A DNA stretch of 64,000 nt from Ilumatobacteraceae bacterium (GTDB taxonomy: Bacteria; Actinomycetota; Acidimicrobiia; Acidimicrobiales; Ilumatobacteraceae): NCBI GenBank assembly GCA_044239355.1, contig JBIIBO010000006.1, positions 18,311-82,310 on the forward strand, given 5' to 3'. Positions within the stretch are counted from its first letter, which is position 1. The number at the start of each line of letters is the position of its first letter. The position numbers were made by a program, and so were the translations under genes. This document shows, piece by piece, positions 3,337-43,075 of this stretch. The notes below the pieces were generated by a model. That model did not search any database. It worked only from the letters and a program-made list of their open reading frames with translations, and had not been told where the DNA came from.

Positions 3337-4254
3337 CTAGTTCTTGTGAAGATCTGCGTTCAATCCACCCCAAGAACCAGTGCGAGAAATTACTTCTACA
3401 GCACCGGTGAGTGAGTTACGACGGTACAACAATCCGGATTGACCGGAAAGAAGTTTTGCTTTCACGGCATTGCCAGAAGGATCAAGAACCACTGTGCCGG
3501 CGGTGACGTAGAGTCCTGCTTCCACGATGCAATCATCACCGAGGCTGATCCCGATGCCAGCGTTAGCACCAAGCAGACATCGCTCACCAATGGTGACCAT
3601 TTCTTTTCCACCACCAGAGAGTGTTCCCATGATGGAAGCACCACCGCCAATGTCGGAGCCATCGCCCACGATGACACCTTGTGAGATGCGGCCTTCCACC
3701 ATCGATGCACCCAAGGTGCCGGCATTGAAGTTGCAGAATCCTTCGTGCATCACCGTGGTGCCCGAGGCAAGATATGCGCCAAGACGAACACGGCTTGCAT
3801 CGGCAATACGCACTCCACTTGGGACCACGTAATCGGTCATGCGAGGGAACTTGTCGACTCCGTGCACGGTGAGGTGTTCATTGCGGCGTGCAAAGTTCCA
3901 CGTCACTGATTCGATAGCGCTCACGGGAACGGGACCCCGCGATGTCCATGCAACATTTTGCAGATGGCCAAACATGCCGTCGAGATTGATGGTGCGTGGT
4001 TGCATGTGGCGATGGGAGAGAAGATTCAAACGAAGATACGCATCTTGGGCATTTGTAGGGCTTGCCGCAGTATCGACGGTGATGGACACGGCGCGAAAGG
4101 CCACGCCGCGTTCAGGATCGGAATCTGTTGCAGGTTCATGAGAGGGAAGTGATGATGGGGCCTCACCTAGTCCCAATGCACGAAATCGCACATCGAGTGT
4201 TGCGCCGTCGGCGTCAAGTGTGGCAATGCCCACTCCCCATGCTGTTGTTGACAT
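3337..4254 (-). CDS. dapD: 2,3,4,5-tetrahydropyridine-2,6-dicarboxylate N-succinyltransferase (actinobacterial type)
   Basis: 305 aa. The N-terminus [17 protein letters not shown]... and hexapeptide-repeat C-terminal half ([36 protein letters not shown]...) resemble mycobacterial/corynebacterial DapD. Confidence 0.85.
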
Positions 4255-5859: not shown

Positions 5860-7227
5860 GTGAATCTGAATAAACGCCTCGTTGTTGTAGGTGGAGGCCC
5901 CGCTGGCCATGCGGCGGCAAGCCTGGCTGCTCGCAAAGGTGTGCAGGTCACAGTGGTGGAGCGTGAAATTCTCGGAGGCGCAGCGCACTTGTTGGATTGT
6001 GTGCCATCAAAAACAATGATCGCCACGGGCAGTGCAGTGAGCTTCACCGAGGGACTTAGTGGCATGGGTCTAGAGAACAGGGATGCCGAAGTTGATGTCG
6101 CAGCTCTCACAAACCGCATTGAGGGCATTAAGAATCGTCTGTCCAATGACGTGGAGACTCTTCTTGTCAGCCAAGGCGTGAGAATTCTGCGGGGCACTGC
6201 CACTTTGGTAGATCGTTTTCATGTGCGCGTTGTTTTTGCCGATGGAACACAAGAAGACATCGAGACTGACGACATTTTGATCTCTACAGGTAGTCGTCCT
6301 CGCATTCCAGATTTTGTGCAACCCGATGGTGATCGCATTTTGACGACACGAGATTGTTATCCGCCAAAAATTTTCCCCGAGAGCGTCACCATCGTGGGCT
6401 CTGGTGTGACTGGTGTGGAATTTGCACACATGTTTGAATCATTTGGATCCAAAGTCACATTGGTGGTGAGTCGTCAACAAGTGTTGCCGGGCAAAGATCC
6501 AGAAGTTGCTGCTGTTCTCGAGGACACCTTCTTGGCTCGTGGTGTGCGTTTGTTTAAGGGTGCACGTGCCACAACAATTGAGCGAACAGCTAACGGCGTA
6601 CGCGTGGTGTGTGACGATGGGCGAGTGTCGGAAACCACCCATGCGGTGCTGGCAATTGGATCACTTCCCAATACCGAAGGGCTTGGCTTAGAAAACGTGG
6701 GCGTCGAAACTGATGGTGGCTACATCGTGATTAATCGTCACTGCCAAAGCAGTATCGACAACATCTATGCAGCCGGTGATGTCAGTGGAAAGCTTCCATT
6801 GTCGTCGGTGGCTTCTATGCAAGGACGAAAAGTTGCCGAGCAAGTAGTGGGTGGACCCAAAGGTCCACATCGCCATTTGGATTATGACAAAGCAGCGTCT
6901 GCAATTTTTACTGAGCCAGAGATTGCCGATGTGGGGCTTGCCGAGGCAGAAGCATTTGCATCAGGTCGAAAGATTCGCGTCACCAAAGTGCCGTTTTCAT
7001 CTACTGCAAAAGCATTAATCAATAACGATTCACGTGGTTTTGTCAAGATCATTAGTGATCCTGCAACAGGCGAAGTGCTGGGTGGATCCATTGTGGGCCG
7101 TCACGCAGCAGAGCTCATCAGTGTGATTGCATTAGCCGTGACGGCAAATCTTAAAGTCACCGACATTGAAGAGTCTTTGTTAGTGCATCCGGCTCTTGCC
7201 GAAGCACTGTCTGAAGCTGCTGACTAG
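5860..7227 (+). CDS. flavoprotein disulfide-reductase-family NAD(P)H dehydrogenase (LpdA/Rv3303c-like, single-Cys active-site region)
   Basis: 455 aa with VVVGGGPAGHAAA (FAD) and a second Rossmann motif IVGSGVTGVEFA. The region where the CxxxxC should be reads GGAAHLLDCVPSK. The dimerisation domain ends ...HPALAEAL. Confidence 0.8.
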   Translation: MNLNKRLVVVGGGPAGHAAASLAARKGVQVTVVEREILGGAAHLLDCVPSKTMIATGSAVSFTEGLSGMGLENRDAEVDVAALTNRIEGIKNRLSNDVETLLVSQGVRILRGTATLVDRFHVRVVFADGTQEDIETDDILISTGSRPRIPDFVQPDGDRILTTRDCYPPKIFPESVTIVGSGVTGVEFAHMFESFGSKVTLVVSRQQVLPGKDPEVAAVLEDTFLARGVRLFKGARATTIERTANGVRVVCDDGRVSETTHAVLAIGSLPNTEGLGLENVGVETDGGYIVINRHCQSSIDNIYAAGDVSGKLPLSSVASMQGRKVAEQVVGGPKGPHRHLDYDKAASAIFTEPEIADVGLAEAEAFASGRKIRVTKVPFSSTAKALINNDSRGFVKIISDPATGEVLGGSIVGRHAAELISVIALAVTANLKVTDIEESLLVHPALAEALSEAAD

Positions 7228-7242
7228 TTATTCAATAACAAC
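7212..7242. repeat. 31-bp direct repeat, left copy (TGAAGCTGCTGACTAGTTATTCAATAACAAC)
   Basis: Identical to 8976..9006 by my base-by-base alignment. It contains the last 16 nt of the 5860..7227 CDS (including TAG) plus a 15-nt relic of the accA 3' end (TTATTCAATAACAAC). Confidence 0.95.
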
Positions 7243-8975
7243 GACAGTTTCAAGAGACCCGTATCACGGATGAAACTGTTGAAGGTTTACCTTTTCTCAT
7301 CACAGTTGCCGTGTAACGACATTTGCCCTTCTTCAACATGCGTAACGATGTTCCTTGGGGACGACACACCGAACTAGTACGGGAAGTTATACGAACTACT
7401 CGTGCACCTTTGGATGGCGACAACAATGTAGTTGCTGGCAATATTTGGGTGATCTGTGCTCTAGTTCGCGGAGTCACTCTTGCGCCGTTCTTAAGTTGTA
7501 CTTGCTTTGCGATGGTCGTTACAACGTAATTGACGGGGATGGTCGACCTTCGCGTGTTTCGAGCAGTTGATTTCTTGACATTACTTGTCGAGACGATTGC
7601 ATTTACTAAGCAAGGACCTGGTCTAATCGGAACGATTTTATTGTTTGTGATCGTGCAGCCTTGCTCGTTGACGCTAAGACTGTCCACATTCAGTGACAAC
7701 TGCGTTCTGAGATTCGAGGCGCTGCAGTCTGCAAAGACAGTGTTCTCGAGGACATCGTCGGTTGTTCGTGGAGTGGCATTGTCGAGAACGAGAGCCCAGT
7801 CATCTACACCTTCTAGGTATTGCCATTTTTCGTTGGAGTTCTCAATTTCGGTGAATTTTCCTCCGAAGGGGCCAACCTTTGAAGCAGAGTCGTAAATGGG
7901 TCCTAAAAACTTTCCGATTAATCCTTCAAACCTCCACTTGGCTAGTCCAAGATCAATGAGAGAAAGTAGGTAACCATCTGGCCCTAACGCTCCGTAGCCC
8001 ATAACGCGAGGTGAAGGGGCAAGAATTACTTCACCGCTGGGACAGGCCCCTGGCGCAACAAAATCAAGTGATGTGGTAATCGGAGGCTTGCCGTCGCCGG
8101 TCACGCGGTATGTCAGGTTGTATGTACGACCAGCTTTCAATCCGTCAATGTGTGGGCCACTAGGTGTTGTGAAAGGGCCGAAGTTATTTGAACCACATCC
8201 AGGAACAGTTATGTCTCCTGTGGATTTTCCAATTGTGCCCCGCTTTTTGAATTGACCGTTTTCAATAAGTTCATATTCTGCGTCTGTGTATCCCTCGAGA
8301 GTGGAAGAAAATCCAAACATTGAGGTAGGGGCGCCTGACGAACTGTTCAGTGGTAAGCCATCGCGATAGTTGGCGCAAAGACTTACTCTTGTCATGATCG
8401 TTGAATCTAAATTCCAAAAAGTGACTTCAAATGGCTCCAGTGATGTCTGTTGCTGATGCCAATCACGTGGGTTGGACCAAGTATTAACTGGATTAGTAGA
8501 CAGTGACCAACCATCTGTCAAATCTTTAAAATTACTTGGGACTTGTGCTGTCACTGGGCGTCGTTGAAATCTTTCACCAACTTTTAGAAGTACCTGTAAC
8601 CAGCGAGCAGAATCGCGCACCCCAGGCGTGGAGATGTAGTTCACTTGGAAAATTTCACAGTCGTCGAGGTGGCAAACGCGCATTGGGACAATTCCAAACA
8701 TTGGAATTGAATTCGTACGTTGACCTCTCCCTATGTAAGCAAAAACTGACAGATCACCATTTTCGCCGTGGAGGGCAAATGGGGGAACCGCGTTACTCGT
8801 CTGAGCTTGAATATGGGTATTGGGTAAACCCACTGCAACAACTATCGAAGCCAAGATGACAAACACGCCGCGTTTCATCGTCGAATCCTAAAGCATCCTG
8901 AGATCAACTTTTTCAATTGAGTTCAGCTACTGCCGAGTGTCATGCAACCCTGTTGTTGCGTTGTATAAGTTTTTA
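7243..8975. other. 1.73-kb low-GC insertion carrying a single secreted-protein gene
   Basis: Bracketed by the 31-bp direct repeat. Hand counts of 60-nt lines gave about 40-43% GC inside (7261-7320, 8401-8460) versus about 52% in the flanks (6901-6960, 9001-9060). Confidence 0.7.
7250..8878 (-). CDS. secreted protein of unknown function (orphan)
   Basis: 542-aa ORF with a signal-peptide-like N-terminus MKRGVFVILASIVVAVGLPNTHIQAQ and AGGA 7 nt upstream of the ATG. No catalytic motif recognised. The C-terminal part has paired-Cys beta-rich modules and a basic tail. Confidence 0.8.
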   Translation of the reverse strand: MKRGVFVILASIVVAVGLPNTHIQAQTSNAVPPFALHGENGDLSVFAYIGRGQRTNSIPMFGIVPMRVCHLDDCEIFQVNYISTPGVRDSARWLQVLLKVGERFQRRPVTAQVPSNFKDLTDGWSLSTNPVNTWSNPRDWHQQQTSLEPFEVTFWNLDSTIMTRVSLCANYRDGLPLNSSSGAPTSMFGFSSTLEGYTDAEYELIENGQFKKRGTIGKSTGDITVPGCGSNNFGPFTTPSGPHIDGLKAGRTYNLTYRVTGDGKPPITTSLDFVAPGACPSGEVILAPSPRVMGYGALGPDGYLLSLIDLGLAKWRFEGLIGKFLGPIYDSASKVGPFGGKFTEIENSNEKWQYLEGVDDWALVLDNATPRTTDDVLENTVFADCSASNLRTQLSLNVDSLSVNEQGCTITNNKIVPIRPGPCLVNAIVSTSNVKKSTARNTRRSTIPVNYVVTTIAKQVQLKNGARVTPRTRAQITQILPATTLLSPSKGARVVRITSRTSSVCRPQGTSLRMLKKGKCRYTATVMRKGKPSTVSSVIRVS

Positions 8976-9006
8976 TGAAGCTGCTGACTAGTTATTCAAT
9001 AACAAC
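8976..9006. repeat. 31-bp direct repeat, right copy
   Basis: Identical to 7212..7242. It contains a 16-nt relic of the 5860..7227 CDS 3' end (with TAG at 8989..8991), directly abutting the true accA stop (TTA 8992..8994) and its last codons. Confidence 0.95.
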
Positions 9007-10758
9007 AACAACGTCGCCAGCACCCACGGTGTCACCTGGTGACACATTGATTGCTTTCACAACGCCGCTCTTGTCGGCTTCGATTTGGTTTTCCATTTTC
9101 ATGGCTTCGAGCACAACAACACTTTGACCAGCTTCAACACTTTGGCCTACTTCAACAAGAACCTTCACAATGGTTCCTTGCATCGGCACGGCAACCTTGC
9201 CAGTTCCTGCGCCGCCTGCACCACCAGAACCTGATGCTGCACGAGGAGTTTTCTTTTTGGCTGGTGAACTTGCAGCAACTCCAGCAGATTCTGGAACCCA
9301 CAACTTCACATCGAAACGGCGACCGTTTACTTCCACGGTTGTCTGACGCTGCACAAGGGGAGCATCATCGTCACCCGACGGCGCGCCCACTGGAGTGACA
9401 CCAATGTGAGAGAGATCAAGGACTTGTTCTACCCACTTGGTGGAGTGAGTGACTGCTGCGAAATCTGGATGTTCGAGAATGGCGATGTCTGCGGGAATTG
9501 TTGTGGCAACACCTTCAACAACCATTTCTTTGAGGCAACGCAAGGTGCGTGCAATTGCAGTAGGGCGATCTTTGCCCCATACGATCAACTTGCCGACCAA
9601 GTTGTCGTAGTACTGACTGATTTCATCGCCAGATTCATAACCACTATCGAATCGCACACCAAAACCATCTGGTGGAACCAACTTGGTAATTGGTCCGGGC
9701 GAAGGCAAGAACTTACCGCCAGCAGGGTTTTCTGCGTTGATACGAATTTCAATGGCGGCACCGCTTTGGCGTGCACGTACTTCTTTTTGTGTCATCGGCA
9801 ACTTCTCGCCTGCAGCAACACGAATCTGCCATTCCACAAGATCGATTCCTGTAATCACTTCGGTGACTGGGTGTTCTACCTGAAGACGTGTATTCATCTC
9901 CAAGAAGAAGAACTCACCATCTTGATAAATGAACTCCACGGTTCCTGCGTTGTAGTAGCCCACAGCTTTTGCAGCTTTTACAGCAGCGGCGCCCATGGCT
10001 TCTTCTACACCGTCAGGCAGACCTGGTGCTGGTGCTTCTTCCACCAGTTTTTGGTGACGACGTTGTGCAGAACAGTCACGAGTGGAGACCCACACAACAT
10101 TTCCGTGCTTGTCGCCGACTAGTTGAACTTCGATGTGTCGTGGCCAGGTGAGGTAGCGCTCCACATAGACCTCATCGCGACCAAAAAAGTTTTTCGCTTC
10201 ACGTTGAGCTGAATCCATGGCTTCTTGGACTTCAGATTCTGATTGCACAACTTTCATTCCACGACCACCGCCGCCGTATGCAGCCTTGATGGCAACGGGC
10301 CAACCAAACTCTTTGCCGAAGTCGATGATTTCTTGGGCGCTTTGTGCGAACTCTGTTGTGCCAGGAACAATCGGGGCTCCACCACGAAGTGCTGCTTTGC
10401 GGCTGGAAACCTTGTCGCCCATTTCATCGATGGCCTCGGGCGGTGGTCCAATGAACTGCACACCCATCGCGCTGATGGCACGAGCAAACTCGGCGTTCTC
10501 GCTAAAGAAGCCATATCCCGGATGCACAGCATCTGCGCCACTGTCCTTGATGGCTTTCAAAATCGCTTCGGTATTGATGTAGCTCTCGGCTGCGGTTTGC
10601 CCACCAAGGGCATAGGCCTCATCAGCCAAGCGCACGTGAAGTGCATTGCGATCGAGTTCGGAGTAGACCGCCACAGTGGCGATCCCCATCTCACGGGCGG
10701 CACGGATAACGCGGACGGCAATTTCGCCGCGGTTGGCAATCAGGATTTTCTTCAGCAC
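8992..10758 (-). CDS. accA: acetyl/propionyl-CoA carboxylase alpha subunit (biotin carboxylase + BCCP)
   Basis: N-terminus VLKKILIANRGEIAVRVIRAAREMG, an ATP-grasp region, and a C-terminal biotinyl motif LEAMKMEN. Start trimmed to GTG 10758, the family-typical N-terminus. The track's 10893 start overlaps birA. Confidence 0.9.
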   Translation of the reverse strand: MLKKILIANRGEIAVRVIRAAREMGIATVAVYSELDRNALHVRLADEAYALGGQTAAESYINTEAILKAIKDSGADAVHPGYGFFSENAEFARAISAMGVQFIGPPPEAIDEMGDKVSSRKAALRGGAPIVPGTTEFAQSAQEIIDFGKEFGWPVAIKAAYGGGGRGMKVVQSESEVQEAMDSAQREAKNFFGRDEVYVERYLTWPRHIEVQLVGDKHGNVVWVSTRDCSAQRRHQKLVEEAPAPGLPDGVEEAMGAAAVKAAKAVGYYNAGTVEFIYQDGEFFFLEMNTRLQVEHPVTEVITGIDLVEWQIRVAAGEKLPMTQKEVRARQSGAAIEIRINAENPAGGKFLPSPGPITKLVPPDGFGVRFDSGYESGDEISQYYDNLVGKLIVWGKDRPTAIARTLRCLKEMVVEGVATTIPADIAILEHPDFAAVTHSTKWVEQVLDLSHIGVTPVGAPSGDDDAPLVQRQTTVEVNGRRFDVKLWVPESAGVAASSPAKKKTPRAASGSGGAGGAGTGKVAVPMQGTIVKVLVEVGQSVEAGQSVVVLEAMKMENQIEADKSGVVKAINVSPGDTVGAGDVVVVIE

Positions 10759-41562: not shown

Positions 41563-42420
41563 ATGGCTTTGAATCCAGAAGCAGTCGGTTCAGTAGGTGA
41601 GCCGTACCAAATTTCATGGTCCTCGAAAGATTCCCTGTTGTATGCAGTGAGTTTGAATGTGGGCTCGGAACAATTGCAATACGTCACAGAAAACTCCACT
41701 GGAGTGACACAAAAAGCTCTGCCCACCATGCCAGTGGTATTGGGTTCTGGTCAAGCAACCGCTGCATCGAACCCGATGCGCAATGTGGGTGAATTCAACT
41801 TTGCAAACCTCGTGCATGCATCACAAGCAATCACATTGCATCAGCCACTTCCCGTAGAAGGAACTGCCACGGTGCAAAGCAAGCTTGTGGCGATGTACGA
41901 CAAGGTAAAGGCTGCAGTGATTGTGACGGAAGCAGAAGCCACCGATGCCGCTGGCAAGCCGCTGTACTCCACGCGCTCTTCTGTATTCATTCGTGAAGCC
42001 GGTGGCTTTGGTGGAGAGCGTGGCCCAAGTGGCGCAGTCAATGAACCACCAGCAAAGGCTCCTGATCACGAGGTCACTTTTCAGACAACCCCCGACCAAG
42101 CACTGTTGTATCGCCTCAACGGCGATCGCAATCCTTTGCACTCAGATCCCAATCATCCAGCTGTTGCAGCCGGAGTGTTCCCTAAGCCCATCCTTCACGG
42201 ATTGTGCACTTACGGATTTACGGGTCGTGGTTTGTTGAATGCACTATGTGACGGTGATGCTGATCGCTTCAAGCACATTGAAGGTCGCTTTGCATCTCCT
42301 GTATTTCCAGGTGACGCTCTCACTATAAAAATCTGGAATAGCGGTGCTGGCGAGGCATTGTTTGAGACCTATGTGGGTGATCGCAAAGTCATCGACCAAG
42401 GCTTGGTGCGCTTTAGCTAA
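41563..42420 (+). CDS. MaoC-family (R)-specific enoyl-CoA hydratase (double hot-dog, hydratase-2 type)
   Basis: Hydratase-2 motif YRLNGDRNPLHSDPNHPA. The 285-aa length fits a double hot-dog fold. Confidence 0.85.
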   Translation: MALNPEAVGSVGEPYQISWSSKDSLLYAVSLNVGSEQLQYVTENSTGVTQKALPTMPVVLGSGQATAASNPMRNVGEFNFANLVHASQAITLHQPLPVEGTATVQSKLVAMYDKVKAAVIVTEAEATDAAGKPLYSTRSSVFIREAGGFGGERGPSGAVNEPPAKAPDHEVTFQTTPDQALLYRLNGDRNPLHSDPNHPAVAAGVFPKPILHGLCTYGFTGRGLLNALCDGDADRFKHIEGRFASPVFPGDALTIKIWNSGAGEALFETYVGDRKVIDQGLVRFS

Positions 42421-43075
42421 ACAGTGTCCAGTCATCTGACTTTTTGCCACGCAATTCGTCATAGTTGACTTCCACACACTTAATCCCGCGTGACTCTGCA
42501 AGTGTGCGTGCTTGTGGCTTAATGCTTTGTGCAACAAACATGCCTCGCAGTGTCCCCAAAGTGGGGTCATTGGATAGGTCGGCAAGATACCGAGTGAGTT
42601 GTTCTACGCCGTCAATTTCTCCACGTCGCTTCACTTCAATCACCACTGTGTTGCCCTCGGAGTCTTTGCACAAAATGTCCACGGGGCCAAGGGCGGTGTA
42701 ATGCTCACGTCGAAGGAGAACAAGACCTGTTTCCATTACCTCGGGTGATGCTGCAAGAAGTTCTTGAAGTTGTTTTTCTACACCATCTTTTTCTAACCCC
42801 GGATCTGTTCCCAGTTCATGGGCAGATTCGTAAAAAATCTCGTGGAAAAGGATTGTCATTGTTTCGCCTTTGGGGTTGCGCACAATCCACGAATCGCTCA
42901 TTTCTTCAATGGTGTTGGGTGAGTTCATCCAATTCAGTGGCTTGTATGCACCACCGTCGGAGTGAATAGCCACGCAGCCATCGGCCTTCACCATGACGAG
43001 ACGAATTGCATCTGGCAAACGTGTATCGAGGCGACCTGCATAATCCACAGTGCATCGAGCGACAATCAATCTCAC
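42413..43075 (-). CDS. nucS: endonuclease NucS (EndoMS)
   Basis: Sequence MRLIVARCTVDYAGRLDTRLPDAIRLVMVKADGCVAIHSDGGAYKPLNWM... and ...VVIEVKRRGEIDGVEQLTRY. Size is 220 aa. Confidence 0.9.
   Translation of the reverse strand: MRLIVARCTVDYAGRLDTRLPDAIRLVMVKADGCVAIHSDGGAYKPLNWMNSPNTIEEMSDSWIVRNPKGETMTILFHEIFYESAHELGTDPGLEKDGVEKQLQELLAASPEVMETGLVLLRREHYTALGPVDILCKDSEGNTVVIEVKRRGEIDGVEQLTRYLADLSNDPTLGTLRGMFVAQSIKPQARTLAESRGIKCVEVNYDELRGKKSDDWTLFS

Follow-up and report, generated by a model that had tools for sequence, protein, structure and literature searches.

A single-gene insertion bracketed by a duplicated stop-to-stop gene junction in freshwater Ilumatobacteraceae

The target duplications made by insertion sequences (ISs) and transposons measure about 2–14 bp. 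Hypervariable surface-protein loci of aquatic bacteria, known as 'flexible' or 'metagenomic' islands, are exchanged by homologous recombination in their conserved flanks. In the cag island of Helicobacter pylori the repeat copies the end of the flanking gene, strains with an empty site have a single copy, no integrase is found inside, and the mechanism of insertion is unknown. The direct repeats of the cag island are 31 bp long (PMC3266215). [quoted passage not shown] Here we describe a locus in a 64-kb stretch of DNA from an Ilumatobacteraceae bacterium (contig JBIIBO010000006.1; the whole stretch is referred to as the window), where one gene for a secreted protein, the cargo gene, lies between convergent lpdA-like and accA genes and is bracketed by a duplication of their junction. 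The gene entered the chromosome long ago, and the locus is neither an active mobile element nor a recent foreign island.

The 31-mer TGAAGCTGCTGACTAGTTATTCAATAACAAC occurs in two exact copies, at 7212–7242 and 8976–9006, with a spacing of 1764 bp. No such duplication is expected by chance in shuffled sequence, and it is the sole direct repeat of at least 18 bp within the window. Its first 16 nt are the final lpdA codons with TAG, its last 15 nt are the reverse complement of the accA end (VVIE and stop), and TAG and TTA abut at the right copy. One copy lies on each side, and therefore both housekeeping genes retain their native 3' ends. The features of the locus are:

5860–7227, forward strand: lpdA-like flavoprotein gene, intact, encoding a pyridine nucleotide-disulphide oxidoreductase of 455 aa (Pfam Pyr_redox_2, 1e-59; Pyr_redox_dim, 8e-31)
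7212–7242, unstranded: left 31-bp copy, of which 7212–7227 is the true lpdA end with TAG; the degenerate unit spans 7208–7246
7228–7242, non-coding: pseudo accA end of the left copy, TTA TTC AAT AAC AAC
7243–8975, unstranded: insertion-unique DNA of 1733 bp (7-nt spacer, one gene, 97-nt upstream region), missing from the related locus L014
7250–8878, reverse strand: cargo gene, encoding an all-beta, multi-domain secreted or surface protein of 542 aa with a Sec-type signal peptide
8879–8975, reverse strand: non-coding region upstream of the cargo gene, 97 nt, with a putative promoter and ribosome-binding site; 64–77% identity between lineages
8976–9006, unstranded: right 31-bp copy; the degenerate unit spans 8972–9010
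8976–8991, non-coding, and 8992–9006: halves of the right copy, the first a pseudo lpdA end with TAG, the second the true accA stop with the last four codons
8992–10758, reverse strand: accA-type gene for an acyl-CoA carboxylase alpha subunit (biotin carboxylase and biotin carboxyl carrier protein), intact (Pfam CPSase_L_D2, Biotin_carb_N/C, Biotin_lipoyl)

The flavoprotein is called LpdA-like because it has a single active-site Cys. The final 16–20 nt of its gene form the coding half of the left copy, and the terminus GCT GCT GAC TAG falls inside that copy. In an identical JGI contig (L001) the accA gene is called as 588 aa, and its longest open reading frame (ORF) in the window reaches 10893. 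An initial annotation, made from the letters of the window alone, had described the exact repeat at 7212 and 8976, its division into 16 nt of lpdA end and 15 nt of accA end with abutting stops at the right copy, and two undamaged flanking genes; both copies were recovered, the division agrees with the ORFs and the Pfam matches, and the lpdA and accA ORFs are both complete. The limits that it gave need one correction: the exact match is indeed 31 nt, but identity is not lost abruptly outside it, since the similarity extends to 34/35 and then to 36/39 positions over 7208–7246 versus 8972–9010. Because the similarity of the copies continues beyond the 31-nt core, the ancestral duplicated unit was at least 38–39 bp, and it is made up of ~20 nt of lpdA end with TAG and 18–19 nt of accA end with its stop.

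Eight independent assemblies (the window, L001, L003–L006, L007 and L094) read through both junctions, so that the structure, for which the initial annotation had asked whether misassembly could be excluded, is genuine. Four MEGAHIT k141 assemblies from different samples (L003–L006) contain a diverged version of the whole locus with a 38-bp repeat, and further diverged whole-locus versions are found in an ENA scaffold (L007), a JGI contig (L094) and a Logan contig (L095).

Relatives were found by a protein-anchored scan with one genome per species, which places the locus in freshwater Ilumatobacteraceae, in the acIV lineage of Acidimicrobiia; LpdA orthologues with 70–97% identity are present in 80 Ilumatobacteraceae genomes. 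The closest species representative, L014, shares 97% amino acid identity with the window in LpdA and AccA and 85–88% nucleotide identity, and has no insert. Its empty site joins GAAGCTGCCGATTAG to CTATTCAATAACAACAACAACGTC with a gap of 0 nt (wider context GAAGCACTTTCTGAAGCTGCCGATTAG joined to CTATTCAATAACAACAACAACGTCGCC), the TAG of lpdA standing directly before the CTA of accA. L014 aligns to the window in two BLAST segments, and what these share is precisely the 39 duplicated bases. From the empty site and this 39-bp overlap it follows that DNA was inserted into a back-to-back junction with duplication of its target. Within the genus-level clade, stops with 0 nt between them are the usual arrangement (13 species representatives), and the empty site and ancestral back-to-back junction predicted by the initial annotation are thus both borne out. 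About 20 related species keep an intact lpdA/accA junction, with no other element there. Degenerate patterns of the empty site and the junction gave no match over metagenome and genome contigs, the patterns being too strict (L014 itself differs from them at three positions). Look-ups of the window's LpdA by exact sequence likewise gave no record.

In a sister clade (L009 and L011, LpdA 90% identical), a 39%-identical full-length cargo homologue occupies this junction, oriented as in the window and free of repeats. The initial annotation had named relatives with the gene at this site, no repeat and a host-like composition as evidence that would speak against it, and these two loci go part of the way. 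Decayed remnants of the repeat around the homologue of L011 (type B) were not above shuffles (p ~0.3). Additional cargo homologues are found at unrelated loci, without flanking repeats.

The synonymous divergence (dS) of the cargo gene between carrier lineages is 0.56–1.21, compared to 0.60–0.85 for the lpdA and accA flanks in the same or equally distant genomes, and the ratio of non-synonymous to synonymous divergence is ~0.1 for the cargo and 0.02–0.04 for the flanks. The GC content of the cargo at codon position 3 (GC3) is 0.427, which is host-like against 0.470 ± 0.043 for the window genes, and the homologue in a high-GC relative has a GC3 of 0.78, like its own host. Since GC3 is host-like and dS equals that of the flanks, the cargo is an old, ameliorated resident. 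When L009 and L011 serve as outgroup, the relationship between the window, L003 (filled) and L014 (empty) is a trichotomy that the data leave unresolved (90, 79 and 76 informative sites for the three topologies), and the empty L014 is therefore not an outgroup of the carriers. It lacks the insert through either a secondary, precise loss or the sorting of an ancestral polymorphism.

Alleles of the cargo with 76–87% protein identity occupy the same site in other lineages. They are recombinant mosaics, with a pairwise identity of 62–100% along the gene, and the signal conflicts: the cargo of the window groups with L007 and L094 at the 5' end and with L004 and L095 at the 3' end. In many assemblies short contigs terminate near the borders of the insert, which fits with a strain-variable gene between conserved flanks.

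The two copies of the repeat differ from each other at 0/38 positions in L004–L006, at 1/38 in L003 and at 3/39 in the window. With the neutral expectation set from a dS of at least 0.6 between lineages and from the ~64% identity of the adjacent upstream DNA (window versus L004), the copies should differ at 7–12 positions per 38 nt (Poisson P(0) between 4e-6 and 5e-4). In each copy the non-coding half has remained identical to its coding counterpart in the other. L007 and L094 have the derived CTG TCC GAG in the true lpdA end and in the pseudo-copy, and GCT GCT is present in both copies of the window, of L004 and of L007; the pseudo-copy of L095 retains an outgroup-like GCC GCC, all true ends and the other pseudo-copies having GCT GCT. 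This match of non-coding to coding halves, together with the derived substitutions shared by both copies, shows that the repeat evolves in concert. The repeat is dispensable: L095 has 4 differences in 23 nt, L007 and L094 are without the accA-end pseudo-copy, and L009 and L011 are without any copy. Identity between the copies is highest in the middle of the repeat and decays toward the outer edges, with exact limits of 31, 38 and 21 bp depending on lineage and of 17 bp in L095. As judged from these sequences, the pattern indicates gene conversion between short repeats together with mutational erosion, not a fixed functional motif.

A gene for a NucS endonuclease is also present in the window (42413–43075, reverse strand; NucS_N and NucS_C domains). 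NucS is a non-canonical mismatch-repair enzyme typical of Actinobacteria, and it may bear on the tolerance of recombination between diverged short repeats.

To account for the locus, we hypothesize that a single illegitimate insertion made the duplication, that RecA-type conversion maintains the copies, and that precise deletion is possible; we hold this account, whose originating step we infer, to be somewhat the likelier to be true. In an ancestor of the freshwater Ilumatobacteraceae clade, convergent lpdA-like and accA genes stood stop against stop. A gene-sized fragment, consisting of a promoter region and one gene for a secreted beta-sandwich protein, entered the junction, and at least 38–39 bp were duplicated. 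This could have happened at a break with long staggered ends that were filled in and ligated to the captured fragment, in a manner resembling non-homologous end joining (NHEJ), or by a replicative template switch that resumed ~39 nt behind the position it had left; neither would need a dedicated recombinase. Thereafter, as the sequences show, the gene was inherited with its flanks under purifying selection, diversified fast and was shuffled between lineages by homologous recombination. RecA-type conversion would keep the copies alike while their outer edges erode, with complete decay of the repeat in some lineages, and recombination between the copies could delete the gene precisely, regenerating the abutting junction as in L014.

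Several points weigh against this account. A target duplication of 38–47 bp is far longer than any classical transposition footprint, and we are aware of no bacterial insertion by NHEJ or template switching for which so long a duplication is documented. The length of the repeat is within the range of the identity segments of integrase att sites. Homologues at the same junction in two clades, with and without repeats, could be two targeted insertions. Concerted evolution, finally, could equally be explained by repeated excision and re-integration instead of intrachromosomal conversion.

The main alternative is an att-type integration, which we regard as possible but not probable. The junction would have served as the attB of a tyrosine-type integrase, and the 38–39-bp repeat would be the att identity segment of a circular element. 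What is seen today would be a decayed, CIME-like element keeping attL and attR, or a minimal cassette moved by a recombinase encoded elsewhere, and the copies would stay identical as the insert excises and re-integrates within a lineage. The 31-bp exact (39-bp degenerate) direct repeat lies over the 3' end of its target as in integrase islands, AICEs and CIMEs, and its length fits att identity segments, which typically rebuild the 3' end of the target gene (PMC2440964, PMC5704250). L014 supplies an exact empty site, L004 and L007/L094 share the inner boundary of the duplication (–4 of lpdA), cycles of excision and integration would likewise make the copies co-vary, and two clades have homologues at this junction. 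However, the insert consists of one gene with 7 and 97 nt, and neither an integrase nor an excisionase nor a remnant of one was found in it. No integrase, transposase or resolvase is encoded in the insert or in the 64-kb window, all large ORFs of which are metabolic or housekeeping genes, and no terminal inverted repeat joins the ends of 7243–8975; this agrees with the initial annotation, which had seen neither integrase, transposase nor inverted terminal repeat. Scans of the window for tRNA genes and Rfam families gave no match. In real att hot spots other elements would be expected, but none occupies the intact junction in the ~20 related species. Repeated use of the site may be reflected in one empty relative (L014) and in the homologues of two clades; no other cargo was found there in 80 species. 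Further against integration, no repeats flank the members of the cargo family at other loci, IMG/VR contigs do not contain the junction sequence, and dS speaks for long co-divergence with the flanks and not for recent mobility. The 13-bp palindrome GTTATTCAATAAC, considered as a recombinase site, was rejected, as it is merely the accA codons V-I-E-stop and is not conserved among relatives.

Several other kinds of element were rejected. For an IS or DDE transposon, the cargo ORF is not a transposase, terminal inverted repeats are absent, and the duplication is at least 38–39 bp versus ~2–14 bp. For an integron gene cassette, no attC-like imperfect palindrome lies at either end and no integrase in the window; for a Xer/dif-type module, there are no dif-like arms (judged by eye). 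A prophage or phage-derived islet was discarded upon negative PHROG and IMG/VR searches (0 PHROG matches, no IMG/VR relative, and no occurrence of the junction pattern in IMG/VR contigs). The window, the junction in 80 species and the surroundings of homologues elsewhere showed no second repeat-bracketed insert, and a cassette-type island is for that reason unsupported.

The duplicated junction might instead be a minimal excision and integration module that needs no dedicated recombinase, or one acting in trans, which we think unlikely. Recombination between the 38-bp copies would release a 1.76-kb circle with an intact junction, leaving a perfect empty site, and a cell with an empty site would take up the circle and re-insert it by a single crossover at the junction. 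Such a module would explain why the repeats are identical and the copies co-vary, why the empty relative is no outgroup of the carriers, and why the alleles are mosaics. If it existed, a costly gene for a surface protein exposed to phages or grazers could be lost and regained precisely among co-existing, genome-streamlined lake Actinobacteria.

Equally doubtful is the proposal that the repeat is kept by selection on function, in that lpdA and accA would need the 15–20 nt after each stop as a 3' untranslated region, termination context or binding site. The non-coding halves are identical between the window and L004 despite the ~64% identity of the neighbouring non-coding DNA, and each housekeeping gene retains its original downstream sequence, both of which selection would account for. 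Against it stand the four differences tolerated between the copies of L095, the missing accA-end copy downstream of lpdA in L007 and L094, and the missing copies of L009 and L011. The non-coding copy of L007 and L094 tracks lineage-specific synonymous changes in lpdA, as conversion predicts and unlike a fixed motif, and other species have terminator hairpins or other genes after these stops.

A recent, horizontally acquired foreign islet, towards which the initial annotation leaned, is very improbable. The GC content of the insert is 47.0%, and not the 40–43% counted at first, versus 51.3% for the window (standard deviation 1.3% among stretches as long as the insert). No other stretch of this length in the window is as low in GC or as deviant in its tetranucleotides, and the protein of the insert has no annotated family; the deviation in composition that had been anticipated is to this extent present. 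It does not reach codon position 3, which is host-like in the cargo of the window and also in the homologue of the high-GC relative. The deficit sits in codon position 1 (GC of 0.51 for the cargo and 0.64–0.66 for the flanking genes) and hence reflects amino acid composition. A reading of low GC as foreign origin is further contradicted by the dS equal to that of the flanks, by the 76–87%-identical alleles at the same site elsewhere and by the 39%-identical homologue in the sister clade.

An assembly artefact, in which a join in a k=31 de Bruijn graph or a chimera of strains would have produced the 31-mer repeat, has practically no standing: the repeat length does equal a common k, and a Logan k=31 contig of 1793 bp (30+1733+30) ends within the repeat on both sides, but a genuine 31-bp genomic repeat must split a k=31 graph there, L001 has the identical structure, relatives have 38 bp in four k141 assemblies from separate samples, two additional lineages share the structure, and k141 and metaSPAdes assemblies span the repeat.

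The cargo protein has no Pfam, NCBIfam or PHROG family match, and a sequence profile search against the PDB gave nothing useful. Its full-length family is small, with 16 clusters at E ≤ 1e-30 among 1.84 billion representatives. The AlphaFold2 model (pLDDT 80.8) is all-beta and multi-domain, and the best Foldseek matches are the S-layer proteins EA1, Sap and SbsB and arrays of FN3 or Ig domains, with low TM-scores; owing to these low scores, the protein is described here only as an extracellular string of beta-sandwich domains. The C-terminal ~90 aa (7250–7520 in the window) form a beta module without a Pfam entry. The module recurs in many large extracellular proteins of the RCC1-like propeller and FN3 type, either as one C-terminal unit or as a tandem array of up to 16, and it may be an unnamed family of surface-anchoring or Ig-like domains. 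The cargo genes of L003–L006 (L003 3590–5218, L004 212–1840, L005 and L006 456–2084) contain an in-frame stop at codon 451, which removes this module; the codons beyond it are still conserved. The stop represents either recent pseudogenisation or a truncated variant. In an alignment of six lineages, the region upstream of the cargo gene holds a short conserved GCAAC...GTTGC inverted repeat. A scan of the insert for consensus sigma-70 promoters and terminators gave nothing above chance.

The lpdA/accA junction takes other forms in other relatives. A few sister species have a GC-rich hairpin of 50–64 bp there: in L024 (~7369–7430), L025 (~2315–2366), L031 (~7369–7432) and L034 (~7369–7419) the two stops are 51–64 bp apart, and the spacer contains a conserved GC-rich hairpin between runs of A and T, AAAAAGCCGGCGAGTTTCCCCGCCGGCTTTTT, which resembles a bidirectional terminator. 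This hairpin spacer is a second, independent kind of insertion at the junction. L015 (~3461–3470) and L016 (~7369–7378) have a 10-nt spacer between the stops, CTGTTGTTAG, which might be a small duplication or a scar. In distant Ilumatobacteraceae genera (L036, L038, L046–L054, L062–L075 and others) a gap of ~490–1100 bp follows lpdA, and in 27 loci of these genera a conserved ORF of ~150–170 aa comes after lpdA on the same strand. Given this ORF, the abutting junction in the clade of the window is derived and compacted, or else the ORF was gained elsewhere. Junction repeats are lacking in the species with the hairpin spacer and in the distant genera with intervening genes. In L035 the LpdA match ends at residue 395 and the AccA match overlaps it (gap –516), which suggests that the junction is rearranged, deleted or misassembled in that metagenome-assembled genome (MAG). 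Ten MAG records titled 'Bifidobacterium breve' or 'uncultured Bifidobacterium sp.' (L016, L017, L023, L033, L034, L035, L037, L066, L068 and L075) consist of contigs fully syntenic with freshwater Ilumatobacteraceae, with LpdA 72–87% identical to that of the window; these look like mislabelled taxonomy.

The locus provides a clean natural example of how a compact genome accepts a gene between two abutting convergent essential genes with neither being damaged. A perfect flanking repeat and a low GC content are the standard marks of a recent island, and both can mislead. Here the repeat would be perfect through homogenisation, half of each copy being under coding constraint and converting the other, and the GC deficit comes from amino acid composition. 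The locus also marks a hypervariable, recombining surface-protein site in acIV Actinobacteria that breaks metagenome assemblies. Should the repeat truly support reversible, precise loss and gain, it would constitute a very small device for gene mobility.

Among described systems, ISs and transposons share with this locus the duplication of target DNA on both sides, consistent with staggered cleavage and fill-in; unlike theirs, the duplication here is at least 38–39 bp, with no transposase and no terminal inverted repeats. AICEs and CIMEs resemble it in having direct repeats, tens of bp long, that overlap and rebuild the 3' end of a target gene. In contrast to these, the target here is not a tRNA gene, there is no integrase or remnant of an element, no other element is present at the site in ~20 related species, and there is no sign of recent mobility. 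With the hypervariable loci of aquatic bacteria the locus has in common the single chromosomal site in all carriers, divergent mosaic alleles with conflicting signal, a secreted or surface product, and metagenome contigs that break at the borders; those loci, however, are normally without a bracketing duplicated junction and without a precise empty site. The closest known case is that of islands flanked by a direct repeat that copies the end of a flanking gene and having no integrase of their own, such as the H. pylori cag island. Both inserts are bracketed by a direct repeat of ~31 bp that copies the 3' end of a flanking gene, with a single copy at the empty site. Unlike the 40-kb cag island, the insert here is a single 1.6-kb gene, the duplicated target is an abutting stop-to-stop junction so that two gene ends are preserved, and the insert is old, host-like at codon position 3 and co-diverging with its flanks. 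What is unusual here is that the duplicated junction joins two convergent genes stop to stop, that the insert is one gene in size and that a 38-bp repeat can be shown to evolve in concert.

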